A stretch of DNA of 64,000 bases from Bacteroidota bacterium (GTDB taxonomy: Bacteria > Bacteroidota > Bacteroidia > Bacteroidales > VadinHA17): positions 7,648 to 71,647 of the forward strand of contig JADFDS010000006.1 in assembly GCA_018262715.1 (NCBI GenBank), written 5' to 3'. The stretch's first letter is position 1, and each line of letters opens with the position of its first letter. The translations under genes and the position numbers were made by a program. This document shows, in pieces, positions 3,535-61,779 of this stretch. Below the pieces are notes generated by a model. It saw only the letters and a program-made list of their open reading frames with translations, was not told where the DNA came from and searched no databases.

Positions 3535-3799
3535 ACTTTCTTTTTTGTTTGATACCAATAGAACAATGTCAGGGTAAAAAGGTTTCCGCAATTTATGACT
3601 AAAATCGGAGTGGAGCAAGCAGATAAAGATGCCGGAGAGCACCCGGATCAAATTTTGCCTGATTCCTTCGGATTTTCAGACCTGTTGTTCCCCTGCAGCA
3701 ACTTTTCCTTATTTTTGGATGACCGGGGATGTGTTGCAAATCTCCGTTCCTGCCGAGAGGCAGGGAAGAATTTTTAACAGAACAATTACTTTACAGTCA

Positions 3800-12339: not shown

Positions 12340-12344
12340 ATATA

Positions 12345-12424
12345 GGTCTGAAGGTCTGAAGGTCTGAAGGTCTGAAGGTCTGAAGGTCTGAAGGTCACAA
12401 GGTCTGAAGGTCTGAGGGTCTGAG
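12345..12424 (+). repeat. Octamer tandem array, 10 units of GGTCTGAA consensus
   Basis: 7 exact GGTCTGAA, 1 GGTCACAA, 2 GGTCTGAG, starting 6 nt after the ggt stop. Confidence 0.95.
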
Positions 12425-34410: not shown

Positions 34411-35448
34411 ATGGAATTTACTGCTGCAATGATAGCCCAAATCCTGAACGGTACAGTTGAGGGCGATCCGGAAACGAAACTCAACACAGTGGCCAGGATA
34501 GAAGAGGGCGGGGCGGGTGCCCTTTCGTTCCTTGCAAACCCGAAGTACGAACCTTACCTGTACACAACAACCTCTTCGGCAGTGCTGGTGAGAAATGATT
34601 TCGCTCCGGCGAAGGAGGTTAAAGCCACCCTTATCCGGGTGGATGATCCATACCAGGCGCTTGCCAGGCTGCTAGCTTTCTATGAACAGGCCAGGCCGGC
34701 AAAGAAAGGAATACATGCCTCGGCAGTAATCGATGAAAAGGCATCGGTGGGGGCGGACGTTTTCATCGGAGCCTGTGCCGTCATCTCCGAAAACGTTGTT
34801 ATAGGTGACGGATGCTCACTTCATCCCCAGGTATTTATCGGGGAAAATGTCAAAATCGGCAGGAACTGCATGCTTCATCCCGGAGTAAAGGTTTATCGTG
34901 ATTGCGTGATCGGGAATGATTGTATAATTCATGCAGGGGCAGTGATTGGCGCTGACGGATTTGGCTTTGCGCCGGTCACCGATGCCAATTTCATGAAGAT
35001 TCCTCAGATAGGCAATGTTATCCTGGAAGATAACGTGGAGATCGGGGCCAACACCTGCGTAGACCGCGCCACCATGGGTTCGACAATTATCAGGAAGGGG
35101 GTAAAGCTCGACAACCTGATACAGGTTGGTCACAACTGCGAGATAGGAGAGAACACCGTCATAGCCGCCCAGTCGGGGCTGGCAGGATCGACCATCGTCG
35201 GAAGGAACTGCATGTTCGCCGGGCAGGTGGGTCTGGCAGGCCATCTGCGGATAGCCGATGGTGTCAAGATCGGGGCACAGTCGGGCATAATGAGCACAAT
35301 CAGTGAAGAGAACGCCACTTACCTCGGATACCCCGCAACTGACAGCAAACAATTTCTGAAAACCACTGTTTATCTTAGGAAACTGCCTGATCTGAGCAAC
35401 AGGGTTGATGCTCTCGCAAAAGCAGTTGAATCTTTAAAAAACAGCTAG
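34411..35448 (+). CDS. lpxD: UDP-3-O-(3-hydroxyacyl)glucosamine N-acyltransferase
   Basis: FLANPKY, hexapeptide repeats, IGADGFGF, KLDNLIQVGHN. Confidence 0.97.
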   Translation: MEFTAAMIAQILNGTVEGDPETKLNTVARIEEGGAGALSFLANPKYEPYLYTTTSSAVLVRNDFAPAKEVKATLIRVDDPYQALARLLAFYEQARPAKKGIHASAVIDEKASVGADVFIGACAVISENVVIGDGCSLHPQVFIGENVKIGRNCMLHPGVKVYRDCVIGNDCIIHAGAVIGADGFGFAPVTDANFMKIPQIGNVILEDNVEIGANTCVDRATMGSTIIRKGVKLDNLIQVGHNCEIGENTVIAAQSGLAGSTIVGRNCMFAGQVGLAGHLRIADGVKIGAQSGIMSTISEENATYLGYPATDSKQFLKTTVYLRKLPDLSNRVDALAKAVESLKNS

Positions 35449-35559: not shown

Positions 35560-36954
35560 ATGATTGAAAAACAGAGGACGCTGGCTAATGAGGTGAGTCT
35601 CAACGGTAAGGGCCTTCATTCCGGAATTGACGTAATTGTGACCTTCAAGCCTGCTCCTCCGAACCACGGCTATAAGTTTTGTCGTACTGACCTTCCCGGC
35701 GCGCCGTTAATAGATGCGGTTGCTGACCATGTTACCGAGACTTCGAGGGGAACCACGCTGGTACAGGGTGACGCCTCTGTTGCTACAATTGAGCACGTTC
35801 TTGCAGCATTTGCAGGGATGCGCGTTGACAATGCACTGATTGAGATTAACGGACCCGAGGCTCCGATCATGGGGGGCAGTTCCCGAATGTTCGTGGAAGC
35901 CATAACGAAGGCCGGAATCATTGAACAGGAAGAGGAGCGCAACTATTATGTAATAAAGGAGAAGATAGCCTTCTCTGACGAGGAACACGGGGTTGACCTG
36001 ATAATCTACCCTGATGATCATTTCAGCGCACATGTTCTGATAGACTATAACTCGAAGATACTCGGCAACCAGTATGCCATCCTTGATCAGATCAATGACT
36101 TTGAAAAGGATATAGCAGGCAGCCGTACCTTTGTCTTCTTCCATGAACTTGAACCGCTCTTCCGGATGGGACTGATAAAAGGGGGTGATCTTGAGAATGC
36201 CGTGGTGATCCTAGAGCGTGAAGTGGAACAGGAAGAGATTGACCGCATTGCCAAGATGTTCAATAAGCCAGGTATCACTGAACACCATGCCGGCGTACTC
36301 AACAACACCAAGCTCAGGTATCCGAATGAGCCGGCGAGACATAAGCTGCTTGACCTGATAGGCGACCTTGCACTGGTGGGGCAGCCCATCAAGGGCAAGG
36401 TTGTGGCAACCCGCCCGGGGCATTATTCCAATACCAGGCTTGCCAGGCTGATCAGGCAGGAGATAAAGAGACAGACAACAAAAAAGGAGATTCCCCTTCT
36501 TGATACCACCAAGCCGGCGGTGATGGACATACAGCAGATCAAGAAGCTGCTTCCCCACCGGTTCCCTTTCCTCATGGTTGACAGGATTCTTGAGCTCACC
36601 ACCAGCCATGTGATAGGAATGAAGAACACCACTTACAATGAAGCCTTCTTCCAGGGTCATTTTGAGCAGGAGCATGTTTTCCCGGGTGTTCTCCTGGTGG
36701 AGACGATGGCGCAGGTTGGAGGAATACTTGTGCTTCACAACGTGGACGAGCCCGAAAGGTACTCAACCTATTTCCTGAAGATAGACAGGATGAAGTTCAA
36801 GCATAAGGTCATCCCGGGTGATACCATTATCATAAGGGCGGATATGACCGAACCCATCCGGAGGAACATTGTGATCATGTATTGCCAGGCTTTTGTTGGC
36901 GAAAAGCTGGTTGCGGAAGGGGAGATGACGGCACAGGTTATAAAGAACAAGTAA
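35560..36954 (+). CDS. lpxC/fabZ: Bifunctional LpxC-FabZ
   Basis: TIEHVLAA and HKLLDLIGDL (LpxC); LPHRFPFL and FFQGHF (FabZ). Confidence 0.96.
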   Translation: MIEKQRTLANEVSLNGKGLHSGIDVIVTFKPAPPNHGYKFCRTDLPGAPLIDAVADHVTETSRGTTLVQGDASVATIEHVLAAFAGMRVDNALIEINGPEAPIMGGSSRMFVEAITKAGIIEQEEERNYYVIKEKIAFSDEEHGVDLIIYPDDHFSAHVLIDYNSKILGNQYAILDQINDFEKDIAGSRTFVFFHELEPLFRMGLIKGGDLENAVVILEREVEQEEIDRIAKMFNKPGITEHHAGVLNNTKLRYPNEPARHKLLDLIGDLALVGQPIKGKVVATRPGHYSNTRLARLIRQEIKRQTTKKEIPLLDTTKPAVMDIQQIKKLLPHRFPFLMVDRILELTTSHVIGMKNTTYNEAFFQGHFEQEHVFPGVLLVETMAQVGGILVLHNVDEPERYSTYFLKIDRMKFKHKVIPGDTIIIRADMTEPIRRNIVIMYCQAFVGEKLVAEGEMTAQVIKNK

Positions 36955-38612: not shown

Positions 38613-40220
38613 TTATTCAAGTATAACTTTCTTGTTCTTCGGGTACTTCACGCTGTAGGTAAAGACAATTTCTTTGGTTTCGCGGGGTGCAACCGGGAGG
38701 TCCCAGGTAACCTCGCCCGTGGCGCTGTGCTGTTTGCCGCCGCTGAGCTCAACGGCTTCAACGGTGATGTCGCTGTTTTGGGGCAGAGGCAGCTGGTCAC
38801 GCAGTCTCACTGTCACAGCCTTGCTCTTGTTGTTTCTGACGGATATCAGGAACGATAGGGTCTCAACCCTGTTGGCACCGATCATTTTCTGCGAGGTGAA
38901 ATCGGTGCGGCGGTCTCGCTTCACTGTAATGCTGTTGTCAGCACCGAGTGACACCGGCAGGGTATCAGTCAGCTCCGCGGTGTTGATGTATCCCTTGCCG
39001 GTGAAGGTGTTGCTGAAGTAAATGTTTGACTCACCCGGCAGGAGGTTGTATTTATCCCATTCAGTGATGTACCCCATCAGGTATGCCGAAGAGGCAATCT
39101 TGGGCGTTGCGGCATAGCTGTAGGTGGCAGGCACGGTGAGTCTCTGCAGCTCTACTGTCTCCTGCTTGCCGCCTGATGCAATGGTCTTGGGCACATTTAT
39201 ATCGAAACTGAAGCTGATGTTTGACTCTGTTACTGTAACAGGCATCGGGGCGCTTGCCTCCAGATCCATCATCACGGCATCCTCTGCCTTGGCCTGGCGG
39301 GCCGGTCTGCCCTTTGTCCCGTAACCGACGACAACCATTTCATTGAGGGCGTATTCCTGGTAGAAGTCAATGAACCATGGGTCAAGGACGGGCAGATACC
39401 CTGCTGTCATCGGTGCGGCGTTGGAGAGGCTTACTTTCACGTCCTTCCACTCCACTCCGCTGTTCTGCCAGATATTTGCCTTATAGATGATTATGGCCGG
39501 ATCGGTGATGTCATCAACCCTGATATCATATGCCGGCTGCCATCCTGCATTCATAACCACATAAGATATATTAAGCCTGCCTGTTACGGGCTTGCTGCCG
39601 GAAAGGGTCATGACAATCTCGCCGGTTGGCATCTTCGAGCGGTCGATGGTGCCGGCAAGCTGCTGGTCAAGCTTTTCCTTTTCCTCCCTGTATTCCTTCA
39701 AAATCCTGTTTTTTTTGAGAATGGCAGTTTTTACACTCTCCATGCCGGTGCCATAGATATCCATCAGGGCCTTCAGCTGGTCAGGCGTTATGGCCGACTT
39801 CTGGCTTACAACGTCATAGTTGGCCTTGAGGAATCGCTCCTTCTCCAGCAGCACCTCCGTGGCGGTTTCCTCATCCTCGATCCTGATCTGCAGGGCCTTT
39901 ATCTTGTCGCGCAGAGTGCTGATCTCATCTGACTCTGCAGGATTCTCAAGGTAATTGTTGCGGTGAGTCACACCCATTATCATGAAATCGCCCTCACCTC
40001 TCACCTGGATGCTGTTGGGATCTATATATGGCGAAAGACCTCCGGCAACGTACTCCCATGTACCGGGCTGAAGCGTGACGGCTGCATCACCGGAGAGCTG
40101 GGCACCGCGACTGAAAACCGTAACATGACTTACAGGTACCTGTATATACTTTTCCTGCCCCTCAAGAGTGGAAGAAGAAAGCACTATTGCAAAAAACGCA
40201 ACGAAGAGATATTTTTTCAT
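38613..40220 (-). CDS. DUF4140/DUF4139 (MuiA-like) exported protein
   Basis: Signal peptide MKKYLFVAFF; VTVF..GAQ, coiled coil, SYVV.NAGW.P.YDIR, QNSG.EW..V...LS. Confidence 0.85.
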   Translation of the reverse strand: MKKYLFVAFFAIVLSSSTLEGQEKYIQVPVSHVTVFSRGAQLSGDAAVTLQPGTWEYVAGGLSPYIDPNSIQVRGEGDFMIMGVTHRNNYLENPAESDEISTLRDKIKALQIRIEDEETATEVLLEKERFLKANYDVVSQKSAITPDQLKALMDIYGTGMESVKTAILKKNRILKEYREEKEKLDQQLAGTIDRSKMPTGEIVMTLSGSKPVTGRLNISYVVMNAGWQPAYDIRVDDITDPAIIIYKANIWQNSGVEWKDVKVSLSNAAPMTAGYLPVLDPWFIDFYQEYALNEMVVVGYGTKGRPARQAKAEDAVMMDLEASAPMPVTVTESNISFSFDINVPKTIASGGKQETVELQRLTVPATYSYAATPKIASSAYLMGYITEWDKYNLLPGESNIYFSNTFTGKGYINTAELTDTLPVSLGADNSITVKRDRRTDFTSQKMIGANRVETLSFLISVRNNKSKAVTVRLRDQLPLPQNSDITVEAVELSGGKQHSATGEVTWDLPVAPRETKEIVFTYSVKYPKNKKVILE

Positions 40221-48031: not shown

Positions 48032-49276
48032 ATGAAGGAATTACAGAGCGTAAAACAGAGGTTTGGAATAATTGGCAATCATGAGGGACTGAACAGGGCA
48101 ATTGACATAGCCGTTCAGGTGGCCCCCACAGATCTCTCTGTACTTATAACAGGTGAAAGCGGAACCGGGAAGGAGGTCTTTCCGCAGGTGATACACTCAT
48201 TCAGCATGCGCAAGCACGGTCCGTACATTGCGGTGAACTGTGGCGCCATACCGGAGGGAACGATTGATTCGGAACTCTTCGGCCACGAGAAGGGCGCTTT
48301 CACCGGGGCAACTGACAGTCGCAAGGGCTACTTCGAGGTCGCAAACGGAGGATCAATATTTCTTGACGAGGTGGCTGAACTGCCCCTCTCGACGCAGGTC
48401 AGGCTGCTCAGGGTGCTGGAGACAGGTGAATTCATAAGGGTTGGTTCATCAAAGGTTCAGAAGACCGATGTCAGGGTCATAACCGCCACCAATGTTGATA
48501 TTGTCCAGGCAGTAGGCTCGGGAAGGTTCCGGGAAGATCTTTTTTACAGGCTGAATACGGTGCCGGTACGGGTGCCGCCCCTTCGCGAAAGAGGTGAAGA
48601 CATCATTTTACTGTTCAGGAAGTTTGCTGTTGATTTCGCGGAACGCTACCGGATGCCGGCCATCAGGCTCGATCACCAGGCGAGGGAGATGCTGATGAAC
48701 TACTACTGGCCGGGCAACGTAAGGCAGCTGAAAAATATCACTGAACAGATATCTGTCATTGAGCAGGAGCGTGATGTGACTGCCGCCATACTTGCGCATT
48801 ATCTTCCGGATATTCAGACCGGACGGTTTCCCGTACCTGTGAGGGCGCATGCCGATGACAAGAGCTTCAGCAGCGAGAGGGAGATTCTTTATAAGGTGCT
48901 GTTCGACATGAAGAGCGACATGCATGATCTGAAGAATCTTGTATATGACCTGCTGACAACAGGTGATGCTGACAACCTGACAGAAAGCGGGGCGAGGGCT
49001 GTGCGCAACCTGTATAACCAGGGTTCGCTTGCCGGGGATCAGTATGAGCCGGCACCACCTGTGAAGGTCAGCTACAGCCCGCCGAAGGAGAGCAGGGTGA
49101 TTGAGGACACCGAGGAGGTGATAGAGGAGTCTCTCTCACTGAGTGACCGTGAAAAGGAACTCATAAAGAAGGCGCTTGACAAAAACAACGGCAAGAGAAA
49201 GCTGGCGGCGGCTGAGCTGGGGATCTCCGAAAGGACTCTCTACAGGAAAATAAAGGAGTACAGGCTTGATGCATAG
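48032..49276 (+). CDS. Sigma54-dependent enhancer-binding protein without an N-terminal sensor domain
   Basis: GESGTGKE, GAFTGA, FLDEV, WPGNVRQL, C-terminal Fis-type HTH; start MKELQS at 48032. Confidence 0.93.
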   Translation: MKELQSVKQRFGIIGNHEGLNRAIDIAVQVAPTDLSVLITGESGTGKEVFPQVIHSFSMRKHGPYIAVNCGAIPEGTIDSELFGHEKGAFTGATDSRKGYFEVANGGSIFLDEVAELPLSTQVRLLRVLETGEFIRVGSSKVQKTDVRVITATNVDIVQAVGSGRFREDLFYRLNTVPVRVPPLRERGEDIILLFRKFAVDFAERYRMPAIRLDHQAREMLMNYYWPGNVRQLKNITEQISVIEQERDVTAAILAHYLPDIQTGRFPVPVRAHADDKSFSSEREILYKVLFDMKSDMHDLKNLVYDLLTTGDADNLTESGARAVRNLYNQGSLAGDQYEPAPPVKVSYSPPKESRVIEDTEEVIEESLSLSDREKELIKKALDKNNGKRKLAAAELGISERTLYRKIKEYRLDA

Positions 49277-55280: not shown

Positions 55281-56755
55281 TTCTCCTGCAACCTCTTTTT
55301 TCTCAGTACTGCCAGGAAAAGCGCGAACACCGCGACTGCGGCCGCAATGCCTGCCGGAAGTGACACCTTCATCGGCAGGGCCAGTCCGCCACCCGTGTGC
55401 GGGGCCGCCAGCAGATAGGTTACGCAGACTGCTGTAAGAAACAGTGCCGGGAGTGACATCATAAGGTGACTCTTGCCCCTGAGGCCTAGATACATTGAGA
55501 TGGTCCAGCATGTGATGGCTGCCAGGGCCTGGTTTGAGATGCCTACAAATTTCCAGATCCGGGCAAACTCATCCTTCATGACAAAGGTCAGAATGAAGGC
55601 AAGCGCAAACACTGGCACAACTATCAGTAACCTTGATGATACCTTCTTCTGTGGAATTTTCAGCATATCGGCAATGGTCAGTCTGGCGCTCCTGAAGGCA
55701 GTATCGCCCGAGGTCACAGGGCATGCCACAACACCAATCACGGCTACCACCGCGCCAACCTTGCCAAGCCATGACCTGCATATCTCATTCACGAGCCATG
55801 CCGGGTCGGGCTTGATTGCCGGGTTATCAGCCAGCGGGTGGGTAAAGGCATAATTCAGTCCATGCACGTCACCCATATAATTCATGGCCGCTGTTGCCCA
55901 TATCATTGCAACGATGCCTTCGGCGATCATTGCGCCGTAAAATATATGCCTTCCCTGCTTCTCTGACCTGATGCACCTGGCCATCAGGGGCGACTGTGTA
56001 GCATGGAATCCTGATATTGCGCCGCATGAAACCACTATAAACAGGAACGGGAAGATGTTATTGGTGGCGGCATCAGGCTGGAAGTTGACAAGGCTGGCCG
56101 GGGAAAGCTCCATCAGGGTGATGTTGCCACCGGCCAGGTTGACTATCAGCCCGCCCAAAACTCCGGCAGCCATGAATATCAGAGCTGCGCCAAAGAAGGG
56201 ATAGAGCAGCCCTATTATCTTGTCTATAGGGAGCAGCGTGGCAAGTATATAATAGAAAAAAATCAATCCCAGCCAGAAGGGGAGGCTGAAGCCTGTCATT
56301 GTAAAAAGCAGCTTCGCCGGTCCGCTCACGAAAGCCACTCCGACGAATATCAGCAGGAAAAGGGTGAAGGCCCTGAGGAACATCCTCATGGATTTACCGA
56401 GGTAGGTGCCGACCAGTTCAGGGAGGCTGGCGCCGCCGTGGCGCACTGAGAGCATCCCTCCGAAGTAATCATGTGTGGCACCCATGAAGATGCATCCCAG
56501 CACTATCCAGATATAGACAACCGGCCCGTACATGGCTCCCAGTATCGCTCCAAAGATCGGTCCCAGGCCTGCAATGTTGAGGAACTGGATCATGAAGACC
56601 CGCCATCCCTTCATGGGGATGTAATCAATACCGTCATTTTTCGTGAAGGCGGGAGTGGTCCGCGCCGGGTCCATCCCAAAGAATCTTTCGGCCACTCTTC
56701 CGTAGACAAGATATCCCAGGATAAGCAACGTGACCGACACTGCCAGGGTTATCAT
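55274..56755 (-). CDS. cstA: Carbon starvation protein A family transporter
   Basis: IQFLNIAGLGPIFGA, CGAISGFHATQSP, PVTSGDTAFRSAR. Confidence 0.92.
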   Translation of the reverse strand: MITLAVSVTLLILGYLVYGRVAERFFGMDPARTTPAFTKNDGIDYIPMKGWRVFMIQFLNIAGLGPIFGAILGAMYGPVVYIWIVLGCIFMGATHDYFGGMLSVRHGGASLPELVGTYLGKSMRMFLRAFTLFLLIFVGVAFVSGPAKLLFTMTGFSLPFWLGLIFFYYILATLLPIDKIIGLLYPFFGAALIFMAAGVLGGLIVNLAGGNITLMELSPASLVNFQPDAATNNIFPFLFIVVSCGAISGFHATQSPLMARCIRSEKQGRHIFYGAMIAEGIVAMIWATAAMNYMGDVHGLNYAFTHPLADNPAIKPDPAWLVNEICRSWLGKVGAVVAVIGVVACPVTSGDTAFRSARLTIADMLKIPQKKVSSRLLIVVPVFALAFILTFVMKDEFARIWKFVGISNQALAAITCWTISMYLGLRGKSHLMMSLPALFLTAVCVTYLLAAPHTGGGLALPMKVSLPAGIAAAVAVFALFLAVLRKKRLQENQ

Positions 56756-56879: not shown

Positions 56880-58667
56880 ATGGACAACATACGCAACTTT
56901 TGCATAATAGCGCACATAGACCATGGCAAGAGCACTCTTGCCGACAGGCTTCTTGAGATGACCAGGACCGTTGATGCGCGGGATTTCCAGGACCAGGTCC
57001 TTGACAATATGGATCTTGAGCGTGAGCGTGGAATCACCATCAAGAGCCACGCCATCCAGATGTCTTATCAGTATGAGGGGAAAAACTATTTTCTCAATCT
57101 GATTGACACCCCGGGGCATGTCGATTTTTCATATGAGGTATCGCGTTCCATCGCTGCCTGCGAAGGAGCCCTTCTGGTGGTTGACGCCACCCAGGGGATT
57201 CAGGCTCAGACAATATCCAACCTTTACATGGCCATTGAACACGGGCTGGAGATCATCCCTGTGATGAACAAGATGGATTCACCCAGCGCCATGCCCGAAG
57301 AGGTGAAGGATCAGATTGTTGACCTCATCGGCTGTAAGCGCGAAGAGATAATCGAGGCCAGCGCCCGCACCGGGATGGGCATTGACCGGATCATGTCAGA
57401 GATCATCACAAAGATACCTGCCCCCAAGGGCGATCCGGATGCACCTCTTCAGGCGCTCATCTTTGACTCGGTTTTCAACTCATTCAGGGGGATCATAGCC
57501 TACTTCAAAATAGCCAACGGTACCATCAGGACCCATGAGCTGGTGAAGTTTGTCAACACCGGCAGCGAGTATGATGCCGATGAGATAGGTGTGCTGAAAC
57601 TTAAGCGCGAGCCGCGCGATGTGCTTAGAGCTGGTGACGTGGGCTATATCATTTCCGGCATCAAGGTCTCTGCCGAGGTAAAAGTGGGTGACACAATAAC
57701 CCACGTGGCCAGACCGTGTGACAGGGCCATCTCCGGCTTCGCCGACGTGAAACCGATGGTCTTTGCAGGTATTTACCCCGTTGACGCGGATGACTACGAG
57801 GACCTTCGGGCATCAATTGAAAAGCTGCAGCTCAATGATGCGTCACTGACTTTCGTCCCTGAATCATCCGCTGCCCTGGGATTCGGCTTCAGGTGCGGCT
57901 TCCTCGGGCTGCTGCATATGGAGATAATACAGGAACGGCTCGACCGCGAGTTCGACATGGATGTCATTACCACCGTGCCGAACGTCTCATTCCGTGTGCT
58001 GACAACAAGGGGCGAAATCATTGACGTGCACAACCCCTCAGGCATGCCTCCGTCAACAACCATTGACGAGATTGAAGAACCCTACATTCATGCCCAGGTG
58101 ATTTCGAAGTCGGAGTACCTTGGATCCATCCTCAAGCTCTGCATTGACAAGAGAGGTACGATGAAGAACCAGGTTTACCTTACCAGTGACAGGGTGGAGG
58201 TGACCTTTGACATGCCCCTGTCAGAGATCGTGTTTGACTTCTATGACAAGCTGAAGAGCATCTCGAAGGGTTATGCTTCGTTCGATTATCACATCACCGG
58301 TTACAAGAAAGCTGACCTGGTGAGGCTTGACATACTTCTCAACGGGGAAATGGTTGATGCACTCTCAACCCTTATCTACAGGGGTCATGCATATGATTTC
58401 GGCCGCAGGATGTGCGAAAAGCTGCGCGAACTGATACCGAGACAGCAGTTTGACATTGCCATACAGGCAGCCATCGGAGCCAAGATAATTGCCCGCGAAA
58501 CAGTCAAGGCAGTCCGCAAGGATGTGACCGCAAAATGCTACGGCGGTGACATCACCAGGAAGAGAAAACTGCTTGAGAAACAGAAGAAGGGCAAGAAGAG
58601 AATGCGCCAGATTGGCAACGTGGAGGTGCCGCAACAGGCTTTCCTGGCAGTACTTAAGCTCGACTGA
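56880..58667 (+). CDS. lepA: Translation elongation factor 4
   Basis: [44 protein letters not shown]. Confidence 0.99.
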
Positions 58668-58717
58668 TAAAAAAAATGAAGGGGGTATTGCAAATAAATA
58701 AATTATACTAACTTAGC

Positions 58718-58822
58718 GCTTCGTTGGGCTTTGACGGGAAGAATATTACACAAGTCGAAAGACCCTGAAACTAACCTAGACTCATACCCCGTTCGGATTA
58801 TCCGGGCGGGGTATTTACTTTT
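58718..58822 (+). ncRNA. Candidate small RNA (or structured lepA 3'UTR)
   Basis: Promoter-like ATTG-N18-TAACTTAG (58687-58716); bulged 5' stem GGGCUUUGAC/GUCGAAAGACCC; 14-bp terminator stem 58784-58814 with G-U pairs on the plus strand. Confidence 0.5.
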
Positions 58823-58855
58823 CGGCAGCCCTGCCCGCTTTATGAATGGTCATGC

Positions 58856-59542
58856 TCAGCAGAGCAGTTTGTATCCTTTGCCGTGGATATTCAGTATCTC
58901 CACCGATTCATCCCTGCTCAGGTACTTGCGCAGCTTGGTGATGTAAACGTCCATGCTTCGCGCATTGAAATAGTTGTCATCAATCCAGATTGACTTCAGG
59001 GCGAAATTGCGTTCAAGCACCTCATTCCGGTTGCGGCAGAGCAGCTCCAGGAGCTCAGACTCCTTTGTGGTGAGCTTGCGCGACTGATCATTGTATGTCA
59101 GCAGCTGTTTCGTCACGTCAAAGGTGAATTTCCCGATGGTGTATGATGTTGCCGGAGGATCTGCCTGTTTTCCGGAGGCACGCCGCAGTATGGCCTCAAT
59201 ACGGTACAGCAGCTCTTCCATTGAAAACGGTTTGGTAAGGTAGTCATCAGCGCCCGATTTGAATCCTTCAATCACATCCTCCTTGAGATTCTTTGCGGTA
59301 AGGAAGATGACCGGGATGTGAGGGTCAAGCGCCCTGATCTCTTTCGCCAGCGTGAACCCGTCTAGTTCAGGCATCATCACGTCGAGGAGGCAAAGTTGAT
59401 ATTTGTCTTTCCTGAAGACCTGCAAGGCCTGTGCACCGTCAGTGACCAGTGTTGTATCGTACTCCCTTGCTATGAGGTAGTTCTTCAGCAACTGCCCGAG
59501 GTTGGGATCGTCTTCTGCCAGTAAAATGCTGATTTTCTTCAT
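58856..59542 (-). CDS. rprY: OmpR-family response regulator, RprY-like
   Basis: AEDD, LDVMMP, FLTAK, KPF; IW.DDNYFNARSMDVYITKLRK winged helix. Confidence 0.88.
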   Translation of the reverse strand: MKKISILLAEDDPNLGQLLKNYLIAREYDTTLVTDGAQALQVFRKDKYQLCLLDVMMPELDGFTLAKEIRALDPHIPVIFLTAKNLKEDVIEGFKSGADDYLTKPFSMEELLYRIEAILRRASGKQADPPATSYTIGKFTFDVTKQLLTYNDQSRKLTTKESELLELLCRNRNEVLERNFALKSIWIDDNYFNARSMDVYITKLRKYLSRDESVEILNIHGKGYKLLC

Positions 59543-61077
59543 TTTGGCTGTTCTTTTGGAAGGTGAATGATAATTCTGGTTCCTTTTGCGGTCTGGCTCT
59601 CCACTTTAATGGTGCCGTAATGCTCTTCAACGATCTTTTTCACATAGCTGAGTCCAAGGCCGAATCCTTTGATATTGTGTGTATTTCCCGCGGGAACGCG
59701 GTAAAACTTTTCAAATATATGTTTCAGGTGCTCTCGTGGTATGCCGATTCCGTTGTCTGATACGGTGATGACGATGCCCCTGTGCCATGCTGCAGTGGTT
59801 ACGGTTATTTCAGGTGTGCTCAGGGTGTACTTGAGGGCATTGTCAATGAGGTTGAGCAGTACATTGAAGAAGTTGGCCTCATCAAGTACCACAATCGGGT
59901 CGGAGGCGTCAAGGAAAGTTGAGATGGTTCCGCCGCGTCCGTTGACCTGGAGTTTGAAGGCATCAACTGACCGTATAATGAGGGCATGCAGGTCAACCGG
60001 CTGCTTGTTGAGCTCAAGCCTGGCTTTCTCAAAGATTGCCGTATGCAGCACCCTCTCAACCAGCACCTTCAGCCTGTTGCTCTCTTCCCTGATGACCGTG
60101 GCAAGGCTGCCGGTATTTCTCGAGCTCTCAGGGATGGAGGGATCGGCAAGCATCTGAGATGCCAGTGATATGGTAGCTATCGGCGTTTTAAGCTCATGAG
60201 TCATGTTGTTGATGAAGTCGCTCCGTATCTCTGACAGCCTCTTCTGGCGGAAGATGACGATGAAGGTTCCTGTAGCCAGAAGGGTCAGCAGCAGGACTAT
60301 CAGCATCGATGAGCTGGCCATGAACGCGATCTGGCTGAATTTATATTCCTCCTCCTCGGGAAAATATATCGAAAGTATATTATTTCCGGGCACCGGGTCA
60401 TTTGGGAACAGCTGGCGGAGGTACTTGTTGGCCCCGCTGCTTTCCAGGTAGTCAGGGGTTCTGTAGATTATGTCGCCGTAGGCGCCTCGTACCGAACACT
60501 CATAATCAAGATGGATGCCCACGGCGTCAAGTGATCTCCTTATCAGGCTGTTCAGTTCATCTGCCGTGAAACGGTCACGCAGGGGAGGAGTCTCATGCAG
60601 TATCCTGCTCACAATATTTTCAATGGAGATAACCTTGCTGGTCATCCTGCTGGTAGCTCCGGCCGAGAGGATCTGCTCGTCAGGCTCGGCGCTTTCAAAG
60701 AATGATTCAACTCCCAGGCTGTCGGAATCGAGCAGGTAGGTATAGCCGGCCCTGCTGATAATTATTGATCTGACACCGGGGTCGAAGCCGTATTTTTCGA
60801 GAAGCTTTTCTTCAGCTGATTTCTGCTCAGACTGTTCTGAAGGTTCATCGGTGTCCTGTGGAATCGGTTCGGGATTGATGCCGCTCATTATGCGCTTATA
60901 GGTTTCAGCCTTCTCCAGCTCTGATACCACCTCTTTCAGGGCTTCGTTCACTCCAAACCTGAATTGCTGGTCCTCTGCGCTCACTACATTGTTGATCCAC
61001 CTGACCTGGATTATTACCAGGGCAGATATGGCCAGGAAAAAGAATATGGCCAGGAGGACTATATATGAGCGTTTCAT
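59539..61077 (-). CDS. Sensor histidine kinase, RprX-like
   Basis: Two TM helices; FINNMTHELKTP H-box; NLIDNALKY, DNGIGI, GFGLGL; overlaps the response regulator start. Confidence 0.92.
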   Translation of the reverse strand: MKRSYIVLLAIFFFLAISALVIIQVRWINNVVSAEDQQFRFGVNEALKEVVSELEKAETYKRIMSGINPEPIPQDTDEPSEQSEQKSAEEKLLEKYGFDPGVRSIIISRAGYTYLLDSDSLGVESFFESAEPDEQILSAGATSRMTSKVISIENIVSRILHETPPLRDRFTADELNSLIRRSLDAVGIHLDYECSVRGAYGDIIYRTPDYLESSGANKYLRQLFPNDPVPGNNILSIYFPEEEEYKFSQIAFMASSSMLIVLLLTLLATGTFIVIFRQKRLSEIRSDFINNMTHELKTPIATISLASQMLADPSIPESSRNTGSLATVIREESNRLKVLVERVLHTAIFEKARLELNKQPVDLHALIIRSVDAFKLQVNGRGGTISTFLDASDPIVVLDEANFFNVLLNLIDNALKYTLSTPEITVTTAAWHRGIVITVSDNGIGIPREHLKHIFEKFYRVPAGNTHNIKGFGLGLSYVKKIVEEHYGTIKVESQTAKGTRIIIHLPKEQPK

Positions 61078-61246
61078 ATTTTAACAAAAATAATCTGTTA
61101 AAGCTTTAATACATAGACTTAACGTTCTTTAACAGGTTCAGGGGCAATGTAAAAAAAGCAAAGTATTAAAAAAATGTTAAAAATCAATATATTAACATAT
61201 CCTTAAGAACTTGTCCGGAAAAATATTCTGATATTTGCATCAGTTA

Positions 61247-61261
61247 TGGCACGATAATTGT
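61247..61261 (+). promoter_or_regulatory. Sigma54-like -24/-12 promoter
   Basis: TGGCACG-ATAA-TTGT versus consensus TGGCACG-N4-TTGC; no plus-strand CDS downstream. Confidence 0.6.
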
Positions 61262-61271
61262 GATAACATAA

Positions 61272-61352
61272 ATGGAGTTTTTTTCATAGGTTAGGTTAGT
61301 TTTAGGGTTAACACTGAAGAGGAGGCGAGAAATTGTCTCCTCTTTCTCTTTT
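61272..61352 (+). ncRNA. Candidate ~80-nt small RNA with G/U-rich GGUUAG repeats
   Basis: Lies between the sigma54-like promoter and a 12-bp GAAA-loop terminator (61317-61344, G-U pairs on the plus strand, U-rich tail); both flanking genes are on the minus strand. Confidence 0.6.
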
Positions 61353-61779
61353 ACAGTGTCAGGAGTGAGAGGTTCCGGTCGGTGTTATCGCAGCTGTCAA
61401 AAATGAATACTGCAGTGATTTCGGGGATAAGCCTCAGTGAAGCGGCAAGTTGTTCAGTTTCTTTTCTTTCCTGTACTTCGCCCGGCACAAGCAGGTAATC
61501 GATGTTTTTCAGCTTGCGCAGCAGGACGCTTCCTCCGCTTCGGTTTGATACGAGAGAAAATGCACGGTTTTCTGGTGAGAAACGTGAGAACAGCTGAGTT
61601 CCTGCCGGGCTGGCAATGATTATATCCTCATTGCATCTTCTCAGGTCAGTTCCCAGGTGCCTGTTTATCATCACGGAGAGACGGTAATCGGGTTCTGCTG
61701 ACACCACCCCGAGAAAGGAGAAGGGCTGTGGTTCGCCTGTTCCGATAGTATGCCTGGTGATTTTCTTTTCCCTGCTCAT
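61351..61779 (-). CDS. IPExxxVDY-family-like protein
   Basis: DYRL...IN..L, LVSN, L...KNIDYLL; conserved position downstream of rnc. Confidence 0.65.
   Translation of the reverse strand: MSREKKITRHTIGTGEPQPFSFLGVVSAEPDYRLSVMINRHLGTDLRRCNEDIIIASPAGTQLFSRFSPENRAFSLVSNRSGGSVLLRKLKNIDYLLVPGEVQERKETEQLAASLRLIPEITAVFIFDSCDNTDRNLSLLTL

Follow-up and report, generated by a model that had tools for sequence, protein, structure and literature searches.

RNA sponges and decoys of enterobacteria, such as SroC for GcvB, 3'ETS-leuZ for RyhB and RybB, and the chb mRNA trap for ChiX, titrate a trans-acting small RNA (sRNA) through a target-like site that is complementary to its seed region. Hfq and RNase E take part in the action of these sponges, most of which are processing products of other transcripts. 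Sigma54-dependent sRNAs under two-component systems are also established, including GlmY with GlrK/GlrR and Qrr with LuxO, and GlmY is itself a decoy for its partner RNA GlmZ, sequestering a protein and not an RNA. To our knowledge, the phylum Bacteroidota lacks Hfq-type biology, the FopS- and GibS-type RNAs are its only mechanistically understood trans-acting regulators of polysaccharide-utilisation transporters, and these RNAs are known from gut Bacteroides with the protein RbpB as the sole antagonist. In the sections of the FopS report used here, the 5' end of FopS blocks the translation of susC-like mRNAs by pairing beside their start codon, the RNA is counteracted by RbpB, an RRM protein that binds it, and 12–15 paralogues per genome are transcribed from a canonical housekeeping promoter in Bacteroides thetaiotaomicron (PMC11697453). 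The Bacteroides housekeeping promoter is described as TTTG-N19-21-TAnnTTTG (PMC7366714). Here, we describe a locus from an uncultured Bacteroidales bacterium, contained in a 64-kb stretch of contig JADFDS010000006.1 (the window), in which two conserved, predicted sRNA genes, sRNA1 and sRNA2, flank an rprXY-like two-component operon and can form a duplex of 19 base pairs (bp). By sequence, sRNA2 is a distant relative of the FopS RNAs, and sRNA1 is tentatively interpreted as a target-mimic decoy (sponge) of sRNA2.

The duplex is formed between segment 1 (GACCCTGAAACTAACCTAG; 58761–58779, + strand) of sRNA1 and segment 2 (TTAGGTTAGTTTTAGGGTT; 61291–61309, + strand) of sRNA2. Segment 1 consists of the last 5 nucleotides (nt) of an sRNA1 stem and 14 nt of the adjoining linker, and segment 2 is located inside the single-stranded invariant 5' region of sRNA2. 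An earlier note on this DNA had described a gapless pairing of the two segments, and direct reading confirms 16 Watson-Crick and 3 G-U pairs in antiparallel orientation for the + strand RNAs, with all three deviations becoming A-C on the other strand. Its placement of both segments in small + strand transcripts also agrees with the sequence, in that each unit is bounded by promoter-like boxes and a terminator and both RNAs are conserved elements. The complementarity was compared with its chance level by an exhaustive scan of the whole 64 kb for gapless duplexes within one strand that span 19 bp or more and include no more than three G-U pairs. Because 11 such duplexes are found on the + strand, where our own arithmetic expects ∼1.3 per strand, the match alone is not beyond chance. 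Five of the 11 derive from one repetitive site, leaving ∼7 distinct duplexes, and the − strand contains one. The interest of the match is the position of its two halves in two conserved sRNA genes, not its rarity in the window. Other + strand gapless complementarities of 19–22 bp connect 34770–34788 with 36921–36939, 38993–39014 with 55359–55380, and 3665–3685 with 12342–12394; one of these other duplexes contains a single G-U pair, and one involves a repetitive site.

Net co-folding energies were computed for the full predicted transcripts and include the cost of opening internal structure. The sRNA1–sRNA2 pair has a net energy of −23.6 kcal/mol. None of 300 dinucleotide shuffles of sRNA1 (best, −17.2), 300 shuffles of sRNA2 (best, −19.5) or 400 random 101-nt genomic windows (best, −20.2) reaches this value, so the duplex stands clear of its controls (0/1000). 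If the element at 58.7 kb were a mere 3' untranslated region or terminator of the upstream gene lepA (and of the convergent rprY-like gene), with no function in trans, its match to sRNA2 would be a product of chance; the ∼7 duplexes of this quality on the + strand of the window are compatible with such an origin, but the failure of all 1000 shuffled or random controls to reach the co-folding energy speaks against it. As in a sponge, the pairing is extended and accessible, and its 19 bp cover the core of sRNA2 and not the 5' U-run/CAU.

Partners were also sought genome-wide with a gapless pre-filter followed by RNAduplex. A search of the 3.1-Mb genome, on both strands, with the sRNA1 linker places the sRNA2 site second by energy (−31.4 versus −31.6 kcal/mol), and this site provides the only 19-bp gapless run, the next longest being 17 bp. 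With the 26-nt sRNA2 core as a query, the sRNA1 site is tied for the third-longest gapless run, its own antisense not counted. Complementarity is conserved, as the earlier note had required of a functional pair: the duplex is kept in 28 of 28 sRNA1 orthologues. Combined with the invariant sRNA2, these orthologues give net energies of −15.6 to −32.5 kcal/mol (median, −24.2), and 26 of the 28 surpass the best shuffle. In lineage L067, two further changes lengthen the duplex, up to ∼24 bp. Across the 28 orthologues, seven types of substitution within the 19 nt preserve pairing, each replacing a purine with a purine opposite U, and three types disrupt it.

sRNA1 is ∼100 nt long (58720–58823, + strand; covariance model R2) and belongs to no Rfam family, the best match scoring 18 bits against a cut-off of 39. 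It is preceded by the promoter-like boxes TTG (58688–58690) and, after 18 nt, TAACTTAG (58709–58716), which together span 58688–58716 on the + strand. Both boxes are kept in 14 of 14 aligned orthologues, and the sequence following the lepA stop codon is variable. Boxes of the housekeeping-promoter type, which the earlier note had assigned to this RNA, are present and conserved in the sequence. sRNA1 is probably made from a promoter of this type. The RNAalifold consensus contains a stem (GGGCUUUGAC ... GUCGAAAGACCC; 58726–58765, + strand; stem 1) whose 3' arm holds the first 5 nt of segment 1. At pair 31–62 of stem 1, 11 sequences have UA and 3 have GC, which makes it the one fully compensated pair, and several G-U pairs of the stem fit the + strand only. 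Stem 1 is connected via a single-stranded linker (58766–58783, + strand) to a terminator hairpin of 14 pairs with a U-run (58784–58823, + strand; terminator scan), which also ends lepA transcripts and shows compensatory changes in eight pairs. The complete RNA folds with −33.8 kcal/mol (z, −2.9). Segment 1 is the best-conserved block of sRNA1 and is single-stranded except for its first 5 nt.

The conserved sRNA1 element occupies the lepA–rprY spacer in 14 of the first 22 loci, the locus of the window included, and 28 of the 39 genomes of the genus have a match to model R2 of at least 82 bits. On these comparative grounds, sRNA1 is a real conserved sRNA gene. The explanation as a simple lepA terminator draws on an RNA-library contig that runs from lepA into the element (58300–58788) and on some relatives that have a bare hairpin, or nothing, between lepA and rprY. 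However, ∼60 nt on the 5' side of the hairpin are conserved, comprising the boxes, the covarying stem and the near-invariant linker, unlike in a bare terminator, and this explanation is considered improbable. A small peptide encoded in sRNA1 is ruled out by loop insertions and deletions of 1–2 nt among the orthologues.

Over the 151 genomes of the order, the sRNA1 model produces matches at E ≤ 0.01 in 26, with scores of 27–42 bits outside its own genome. These extra-genus matches were rejected as homologues, as the six alignments inspected are carried mainly by the terminator. The match in the sister genus is located in the 3' region of an unrelated gene of 484 amino acids and is likewise not counted. 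Within the genus, model R2 finds no strong sRNA1 copy elsewhere in the genomes whose lepA–rprY spacer is short. Two species without sRNA1 (loci L108, G009:C6:80187–80294, and L109, G017:C8) carry UCUAAAACUAACCUAUA, which is perfectly complementary to sRNA2 over 14 nt and is immediately followed by a terminator. The sequence is located in the 3' region of a gene ending in ...GIGVDLHF, and the two loci score 33 and 30 bits with model R2; they may represent a further decoy or a chance occurrence.

sRNA2 is ∼75 nt long (61274–61350, + strand; model R1; Rfam RF04319 over 61277–61352). Its 5' 40 nt are identical across 30 fetched loci, apart from the length of the U-run in two. Likewise, GGAGUUUUUUUCAUAGGUUAGGUUAGUUUUAGGGUUAA is invariant in 19 of 19 same-genus loci, bar one extra U in one of them, and is bordered by variable sequence on both sides. 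Model R1 matches 35 of the 39 genomes of the genus, including all 22 with a completeness of 90% or more, and the four genomes without a match are 61–71% complete. The predicted fold has no more than weak pairing at the 5' end, and a strong 3' hairpin. This arrangement of an unstructured 5' seed (GAGUUUUUUUCAUAGGUUAGGUUAGUUUUAGGGUUAAC) and a single terminator is that of FopS. The terminator (61316–61352, + strand; terminator scan) overlaps the stop codon of the convergent gene, and its stem shows compensatory substitutions among relatives. A 15-codon frame antisense to sRNA2 is interrupted in relatives and was discarded.

The best Rfam match of sRNA2 is FopS (RF04319), with 30.5 bits over model positions 1–71 of 71 (E, 0.18 in 8 kb and 0.0034 in 151 nt). 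This score lies below the curated gathering score of 56 bits, and the GibS family (RF04182) gives 15.6 bits against a cut-off of 115. FopS is a multicopy RNA, and the genome analysed here has one full sRNA2 copy and one core-plus-terminator element. Because the score is below the curated value and the RNA is not multicopy, sRNA2 is ranked, from its sequence, as a distant relative of the FopS RNAs and not as a member of the family.

Beyond the genus, a full sRNA2 homologue is found in the sister genus, the only other genus of the family searched, where it adjoins an orthologue of the kinase (46% identity) and lies near an orthologue of the IPExxxVDY-family gene. Shorter homologues with UUUUUUCAUAGUUAAGGUUUAGGUUAAA are found in three other families behind canonical TAnnTTTG boxes. 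Model R1 reaches E ≤ 0.01 in 7 of the 151 genomes of the order, and four matches outside its own genome were accepted after inspection of the alignments. The core-plus-terminator element of the same genome (G000:C13:19680–19740, − strand, outside the window) contains the sRNA2 core UUAGGUUAGUUUUAGGUUAA and its own terminator without the 5' U-run/CAU. It is located just after a gene for a 157-amino-acid protein, which is divergent from a paralogous kinase–regulator pair (C13:20365–22613), and FopS-type cores may therefore have become linked to RprXY-type systems more than once. In three of four fetched loci (L104, ∼590–700, from G009; L105, from G015; and L106, from G007), a second sRNA2 copy consists of GAGUUUUUUUCAUAGGUUAGGUUAGUUUAGGGUUAAUUAAA and a terminator behind a clear canonical TAACTTTG box, and a kinase-like gene lies convergent to it. 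All three genomes are without a strong sRNA1 match: G009 and G015 lack the element at the lepA spacer, and G007 is 72% complete. In locus L011 (G006), the sRNA2 terminator is followed by three tandem units of ∼45 nt (GGTACCATGGAGGAGG.GTGAGACT.TCTCCTCTT...), each of which repeats the terminator hairpin.

Upstream of sRNA2, a sigma54-type element (TGGCACG-ATAA-TTGT; 61247–61261, + strand) is kept as TGGCACG-N4-TTG[TC] in 19 of 19 loci within variable flanks. The sigma54 consensus TGGCAC-N5-TTGC has GG at −24 and GC at −12 with a fixed spacing. The −24 half of the element is perfect in all 19 loci, of which 18 have GT and one has GC at −12. The start predicted from the element (61273–61275; expected ∼12 nt past the −12 half) coincides with the first invariant bases and with position 61274, where one RNA-library contig begins to match. 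The genome encodes rpoN (one Sigma54_DBD gene) and five Sigma54_activat genes (220–242 bits), and it contains further intergenic TGGCAC-N5-TTGT sites. One of the five activator genes lies inside the window (48068–48568, + strand), 13 kb from sRNA2. The assignment to sigma54 is weakened by the GT, in place of GC, at −12 in 18 of the 19 loci, by the degenerate form of the element in the sister-genus homologue (TAGCACG-ATAA-ATTA) and by a canonical −7-like box that is also conserved just upstream. This box (GATATTTG, or TATCTTTG or TATATTTG in relatives; 61230–61237, + strand) is located 9 nt on the 5' side of the −24/−12 element and would constitute an alternative promoter for a longer form of sRNA2. 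The sigma54-driven sRNA of the earlier note is thus upheld in part, by the invariant element, RpoN and the five activators, and called into question by the −12 dinucleotide and the −7 box. We consider it slightly more probable than otherwise that sRNA2 starts from a sigma54-type promoter in this genus.

Potential targets of sRNA2 were evaluated by the duplex energy between its first 40 nt and positions −70 to +25 of 14 full-length SusC/RagA genes. The SusC start regions have a median energy of −22.2 kcal/mol, compared with −17.0 kcal/mol for 500 background genes (Mann-Whitney p = 1.2e-5), and none of 25 dinucleotide-shuffled seeds yields as large a shift. Among 2369 crudely called start regions, the 20 best-ranked include 3 of the ∼14–15 SusC genes and a SusD-like gene, as well as those of two type-IX-secretion cargo proteins, a secreted protease, a PBP2-type transpeptidase and LpxC-FabZ. 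By eye, AACC(C/U)UAAA-like words that are complementary to the sRNA2 core and resemble the sRNA1 linker are present in 9 of the 14 SusC leaders. The density of runs of at least 11 bp that are complementary to the core is 1497 per Mb within the 60 nt that precede predicted starts, 1178 per Mb in other intergenic sequence and 784 per Mb in coding sense sequence. A general anti-core motif of 5' leaders was rejected, the excess being too small, and only the SusC set stands out. sRNA2 is thus predicted to prefer SusC start regions, FopS-like on paper. The second-best FopS match of the genome (G000:C1:55819–55895, + strand; L002; 23.6 bits) is antisense to the leader and start codon of a SusC gene (C1:52416–55757, − strand) and is likely a target site of sRNA2 and not another sRNA gene.

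Contigs from four metatranscriptome libraries of four studies cover both loci. One extends over 58692–58842, one ends at 58823, one extends over 61186–61437 and one begins to match at 61274. Such contigs carry no strand, ends or levels and may include DNA carry-over, and their cover is a weak hint that both RNAs are expressed; stretches that the contigs leave uncovered are uninformative. A contig of run X15 matches the window over 61262–61310 and continues into a different terminator after 61310; because of this switch, it is attributed to the sRNA2 of a relative in the same community sample.

The FopS/GibS-type identity of sRNA2, which the earlier note had not seen, gives its antagonist RNA a more specific meaning, namely a mimic of SusC 5' leaders. 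In the proposed mechanism, the simplest to account for every part, two independent sRNA genes flank the rprXY-like operon. The 5' region of sRNA2 would pair with the start codon and 5' leader of SusC-type and other envelope mRNAs and block their translation. sRNA1 would display CCCUGAAACUAACCUAGACUC, located mostly in its linker and resembling SusC leaders, which would pair with sRNA2 nucleotides ∼18–36 and occupy part of the target-recognition region. Titration by sRNA1 would absorb leaky sRNA2, so that repression begins only above a threshold, and cleavage may follow formation of the 19-bp duplex, a possible RNase III substrate. Antagonism could also operate in the opposite direction. We regard the decoy role of sRNA1 as plausible, at somewhat short of an even chance.

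A number of observations weigh against the decoy reading. In L058, L064, L053, L070 and L072, the duplex is weakened by substitutions of three types and indels of two types. All seven changes that keep pairing are transitions, which mutation bias also favours, and the relatives are not independent of one another; the substitution pattern fits a pairing constraint and also a transition bias. Because sRNA2 never varies, no two-sided compensatory change can be scored. sRNA1 is absent where the lepA–rprY spacer is 2–58 nt long (6 of 17 loci with a measurable spacer), and sRNA2 is unchanged in the clade without sRNA1 and is therefore not dependent on it. The search of the order (151 genomes) reveals no convincing sRNA1 outside the genus. 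For the sRNA2 homologues of the three other families and the sister genus, a low-power search with a G-U-tolerant IUPAC pattern that allowed one mismatch reveals no partner: exact matches are limited to the own antisense of each RNA, and one-mismatch counts are 0–6 per strand, compared with 1–15 for a reversed-pattern control. When the 40-nt 5' region of sRNA2 is the query, the sRNA1 site ranks only ∼26th in the genome by plain duplex energy, although ∼25 better sites are expected if sRNA2 has many mRNA partners. The pairing also omits the 5' UUUUUUUCAU of sRNA2 (U-run/CAU), which would cover start codons, and the RNA data consist of contigs in which DNA may have been carried over.

In an alternative explanation, both RNAs are functional and their complementarity is a by-product. 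The leader-like motif of sRNA1 would then serve another role, such as binding a leader-recognising protein (the single RRM-type protein) or mRNA targets of its own, and a motif of this kind complements a FopS-type RNA without any mutual regulation. Consistent with this explanation, the 9 of 14 SusC leaders noted above resemble the sRNA1 linker, the pyrimidines of the motif never switch to the wobble-tolerated alternative, so that conservation is stricter than pairing needs, and sRNA2 is unchanged in species that lack sRNA1. The genome moreover has one RRM_1 protein gene, and the FopS antagonist described for B. thetaiotaomicron in the consulted part of the report is a protein, RbpB, and not an RNA (PMC11697453). 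On the other side, the duplex of 19 bp (to ∼24 bp in L067) is accessible and strong in 28 of 28 orthologues, the RNAs could hardly avoid pairing if they are co-expressed, and both genes flank one operon. The by-product explanation is the main rival and only somewhat less probable than the decoy reading. The linked regulatory module of the earlier note is upheld in part, by a strong duplex in all 28 orthologues and by sRNA2 beside a kinase gene in a second genus too, and is weakened by the absence of sRNA1 from one clade; pairing in the cell, antagonism between the RNAs and control of either one by RprXY are inferred parts of this module.

The locus is bordered by lepA (elongation factor 4; 56880–58667, + strand; Pfam GTP_EFTU and LepA_C), the upstream neighbour of sRNA1. 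The gene for the OmpR-type response regulator (rprY-like; 58856–59542, − strand; Pfam Response_reg and Trans_reg_C) adjoins that for the sensor histidine kinase (rprX-like; 59539–61077, − strand; Pfam HisKA and HATPase_c). On the NCBIfam model RespRegRprY, the regulator scores 363.5 bits, just below the cut-off of 370, and the next family reaches 183 bits; together with the adjacent HisKA/HATPase_c kinase, this makes the label rprXY-like, introduced by the earlier note, a fair one. Convergent with sRNA2 is a gene of the IPExxxVDY family (61351–61779, − strand; NCBIfam NF033205, 43.5 bits), after which come rnc and fabF (Pfam). The proximity of rnc to sRNA2 is conserved synteny and proves nothing about a role of RNase III. 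The divergent spacer between rprX and sRNA2 (61081–61208) is packed with conserved TTAAC words. These include a conserved TTAACG-N5-TTAACA (61119–61134), a candidate regulator site, and TGTTAA-N11-TTAACA (61175–61197) with TTAAGA (61175–61208 in all), which is conserved over 19 loci and located ∼70–100 bp on the 5' side of sRNA2. The TGTTAA-N11-TTAACA element and the TTAAC words are candidate activator or regulator sites. A perfect −7 box (61085–61092, − strand; CAAAAATA on the + strand) is a candidate for the rprX promoter.

The two segments could also be viewed as DNA, as a 16-of-19 inverted repeat that brackets the operon and either inverts the 2.5-kb operon or provides paired protein-binding sites. 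However, all 16 related loci with the four genes lepA, rprY, rprX and the IPExxxVDY gene, the latter three on the strand opposite to lepA, have them in an identical order and orientation. The contigs of the four RNA libraries contain no strand-changing joint, and the repeat has no recombinase gene as a neighbour. The deviations form G-U pairs only when read on the + strand, and the conserved blocks extend asymmetrically, as RNA features do. A role of the segments as DNA is scarcely credible, and, like the lepA terminator explanation, it fits the conservation pattern poorly. A scan of contigs from many genomes with ACCCTRAAACTRACCT gives at least 123 loci, mostly chance matches in unrelated phyla. 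Among the matches listed, four contigs carry a + and a − match ∼2.5 kb apart, and these are metagenome-assembled genomes titled Bacteroidales or uncultured Rikenella sp. The sequencing runs that carry this DNA come from sludge, wastewater and digesters.

In its broadest form, the interpretation would make the pair the first RNA sponge of the Bacteroidota, in which a constitutive SusC-leader mimic titrates a sigma54-driven FopS-type RNA across the same RprXY operon as a threshold device against outer-membrane transporter synthesis, with loss of the sponge in one clade as a rewiring. Taken as a whole, this scenario is unlikely. With regard to rewiring, at least three species, two of them in the sponge-less clade, hold a second sRNA2 copy with a housekeeping promoter. 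If the scenario is true, RNA–RNA antagonism would be added to Bacteroidota riboregulation. The pair is compact and conserved (75 nt, 100 nt and 19 bp) and lends itself to simple tests in vitro or with B. thetaiotaomicron as a surrogate host. The main text of the FopS report contains no occurrence of 'sponge' and describes no RNA antagonist of FopS-type RNAs (PMC11697453). The same holds for a 2026 review, in which 'sponge', 'decoy' and 'RpoN' do not occur (PMC13750123). A full-text literature search on sponge RNAs in Bacteroides returns no such sRNA pair, as judged by titles and abstracts.

Compared with the enterobacterial sponges, sRNA1 differs in having promoter-like boxes of its own. The likeness to GlmY and Qrr consists of an sRNA gene with a −24/−12 element beside or under a two-component system. 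In contrast, the regulators of GlmY and Qrr are NtrC-type sigma54 activators, whereas the RprY protein of this locus is OmpR-type and has no activator domain; one of the five separate activators would therefore have to serve. GibS of B. thetaiotaomicron (RF04182) resembles sRNA2 in its single-stranded 5' R1-type seed for translation-initiation regions and in its non-canonical promoter. GibS differs from sRNA2 in its length of 145 nt, its second seed and its promoter motif PM2, which is a near-palindromic −10/−30 motif and not a −24/−12 element, as far as the part of the GibS report used here describes them (PMC7366714).

The closest described relative of sRNA2 is FopS. FopS, at ∼65–70 nt, and sRNA2, at ∼75 nt, are similar in length, each combines an unstructured 5' region with a single terminator hairpin, and they share the 5' words UUUUUCAU and then UUAG.UUUA.GGUUAA in the Rfam alignment. 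The function of FopS on SusC has been demonstrated experimentally, whereas the SusC preference of sRNA2 is a prediction. An rbpB-like RRM-type gene (one RRM_1) is present in this genome, as rbpB is in the FopS host, a parallel that concerns the presence of the gene only. sRNA2 differs from FopS in its score (30.5 versus 56 bits), in its copy number (one full copy and one core-only element versus 12–15 copies), in its sigma54-type element in place of a canonical promoter and in its fixed place beside rprX. Its host also belongs to a different Bacteroidales family and lives in sludge and digesters. The locus thus suggests that the seed logic of FopS is found in a distant uncultured digester lineage as a single-copy RNA tied to a two-component system, an RNA that is probably also tied to sigma54 and that may be countered by an RNA decoy.

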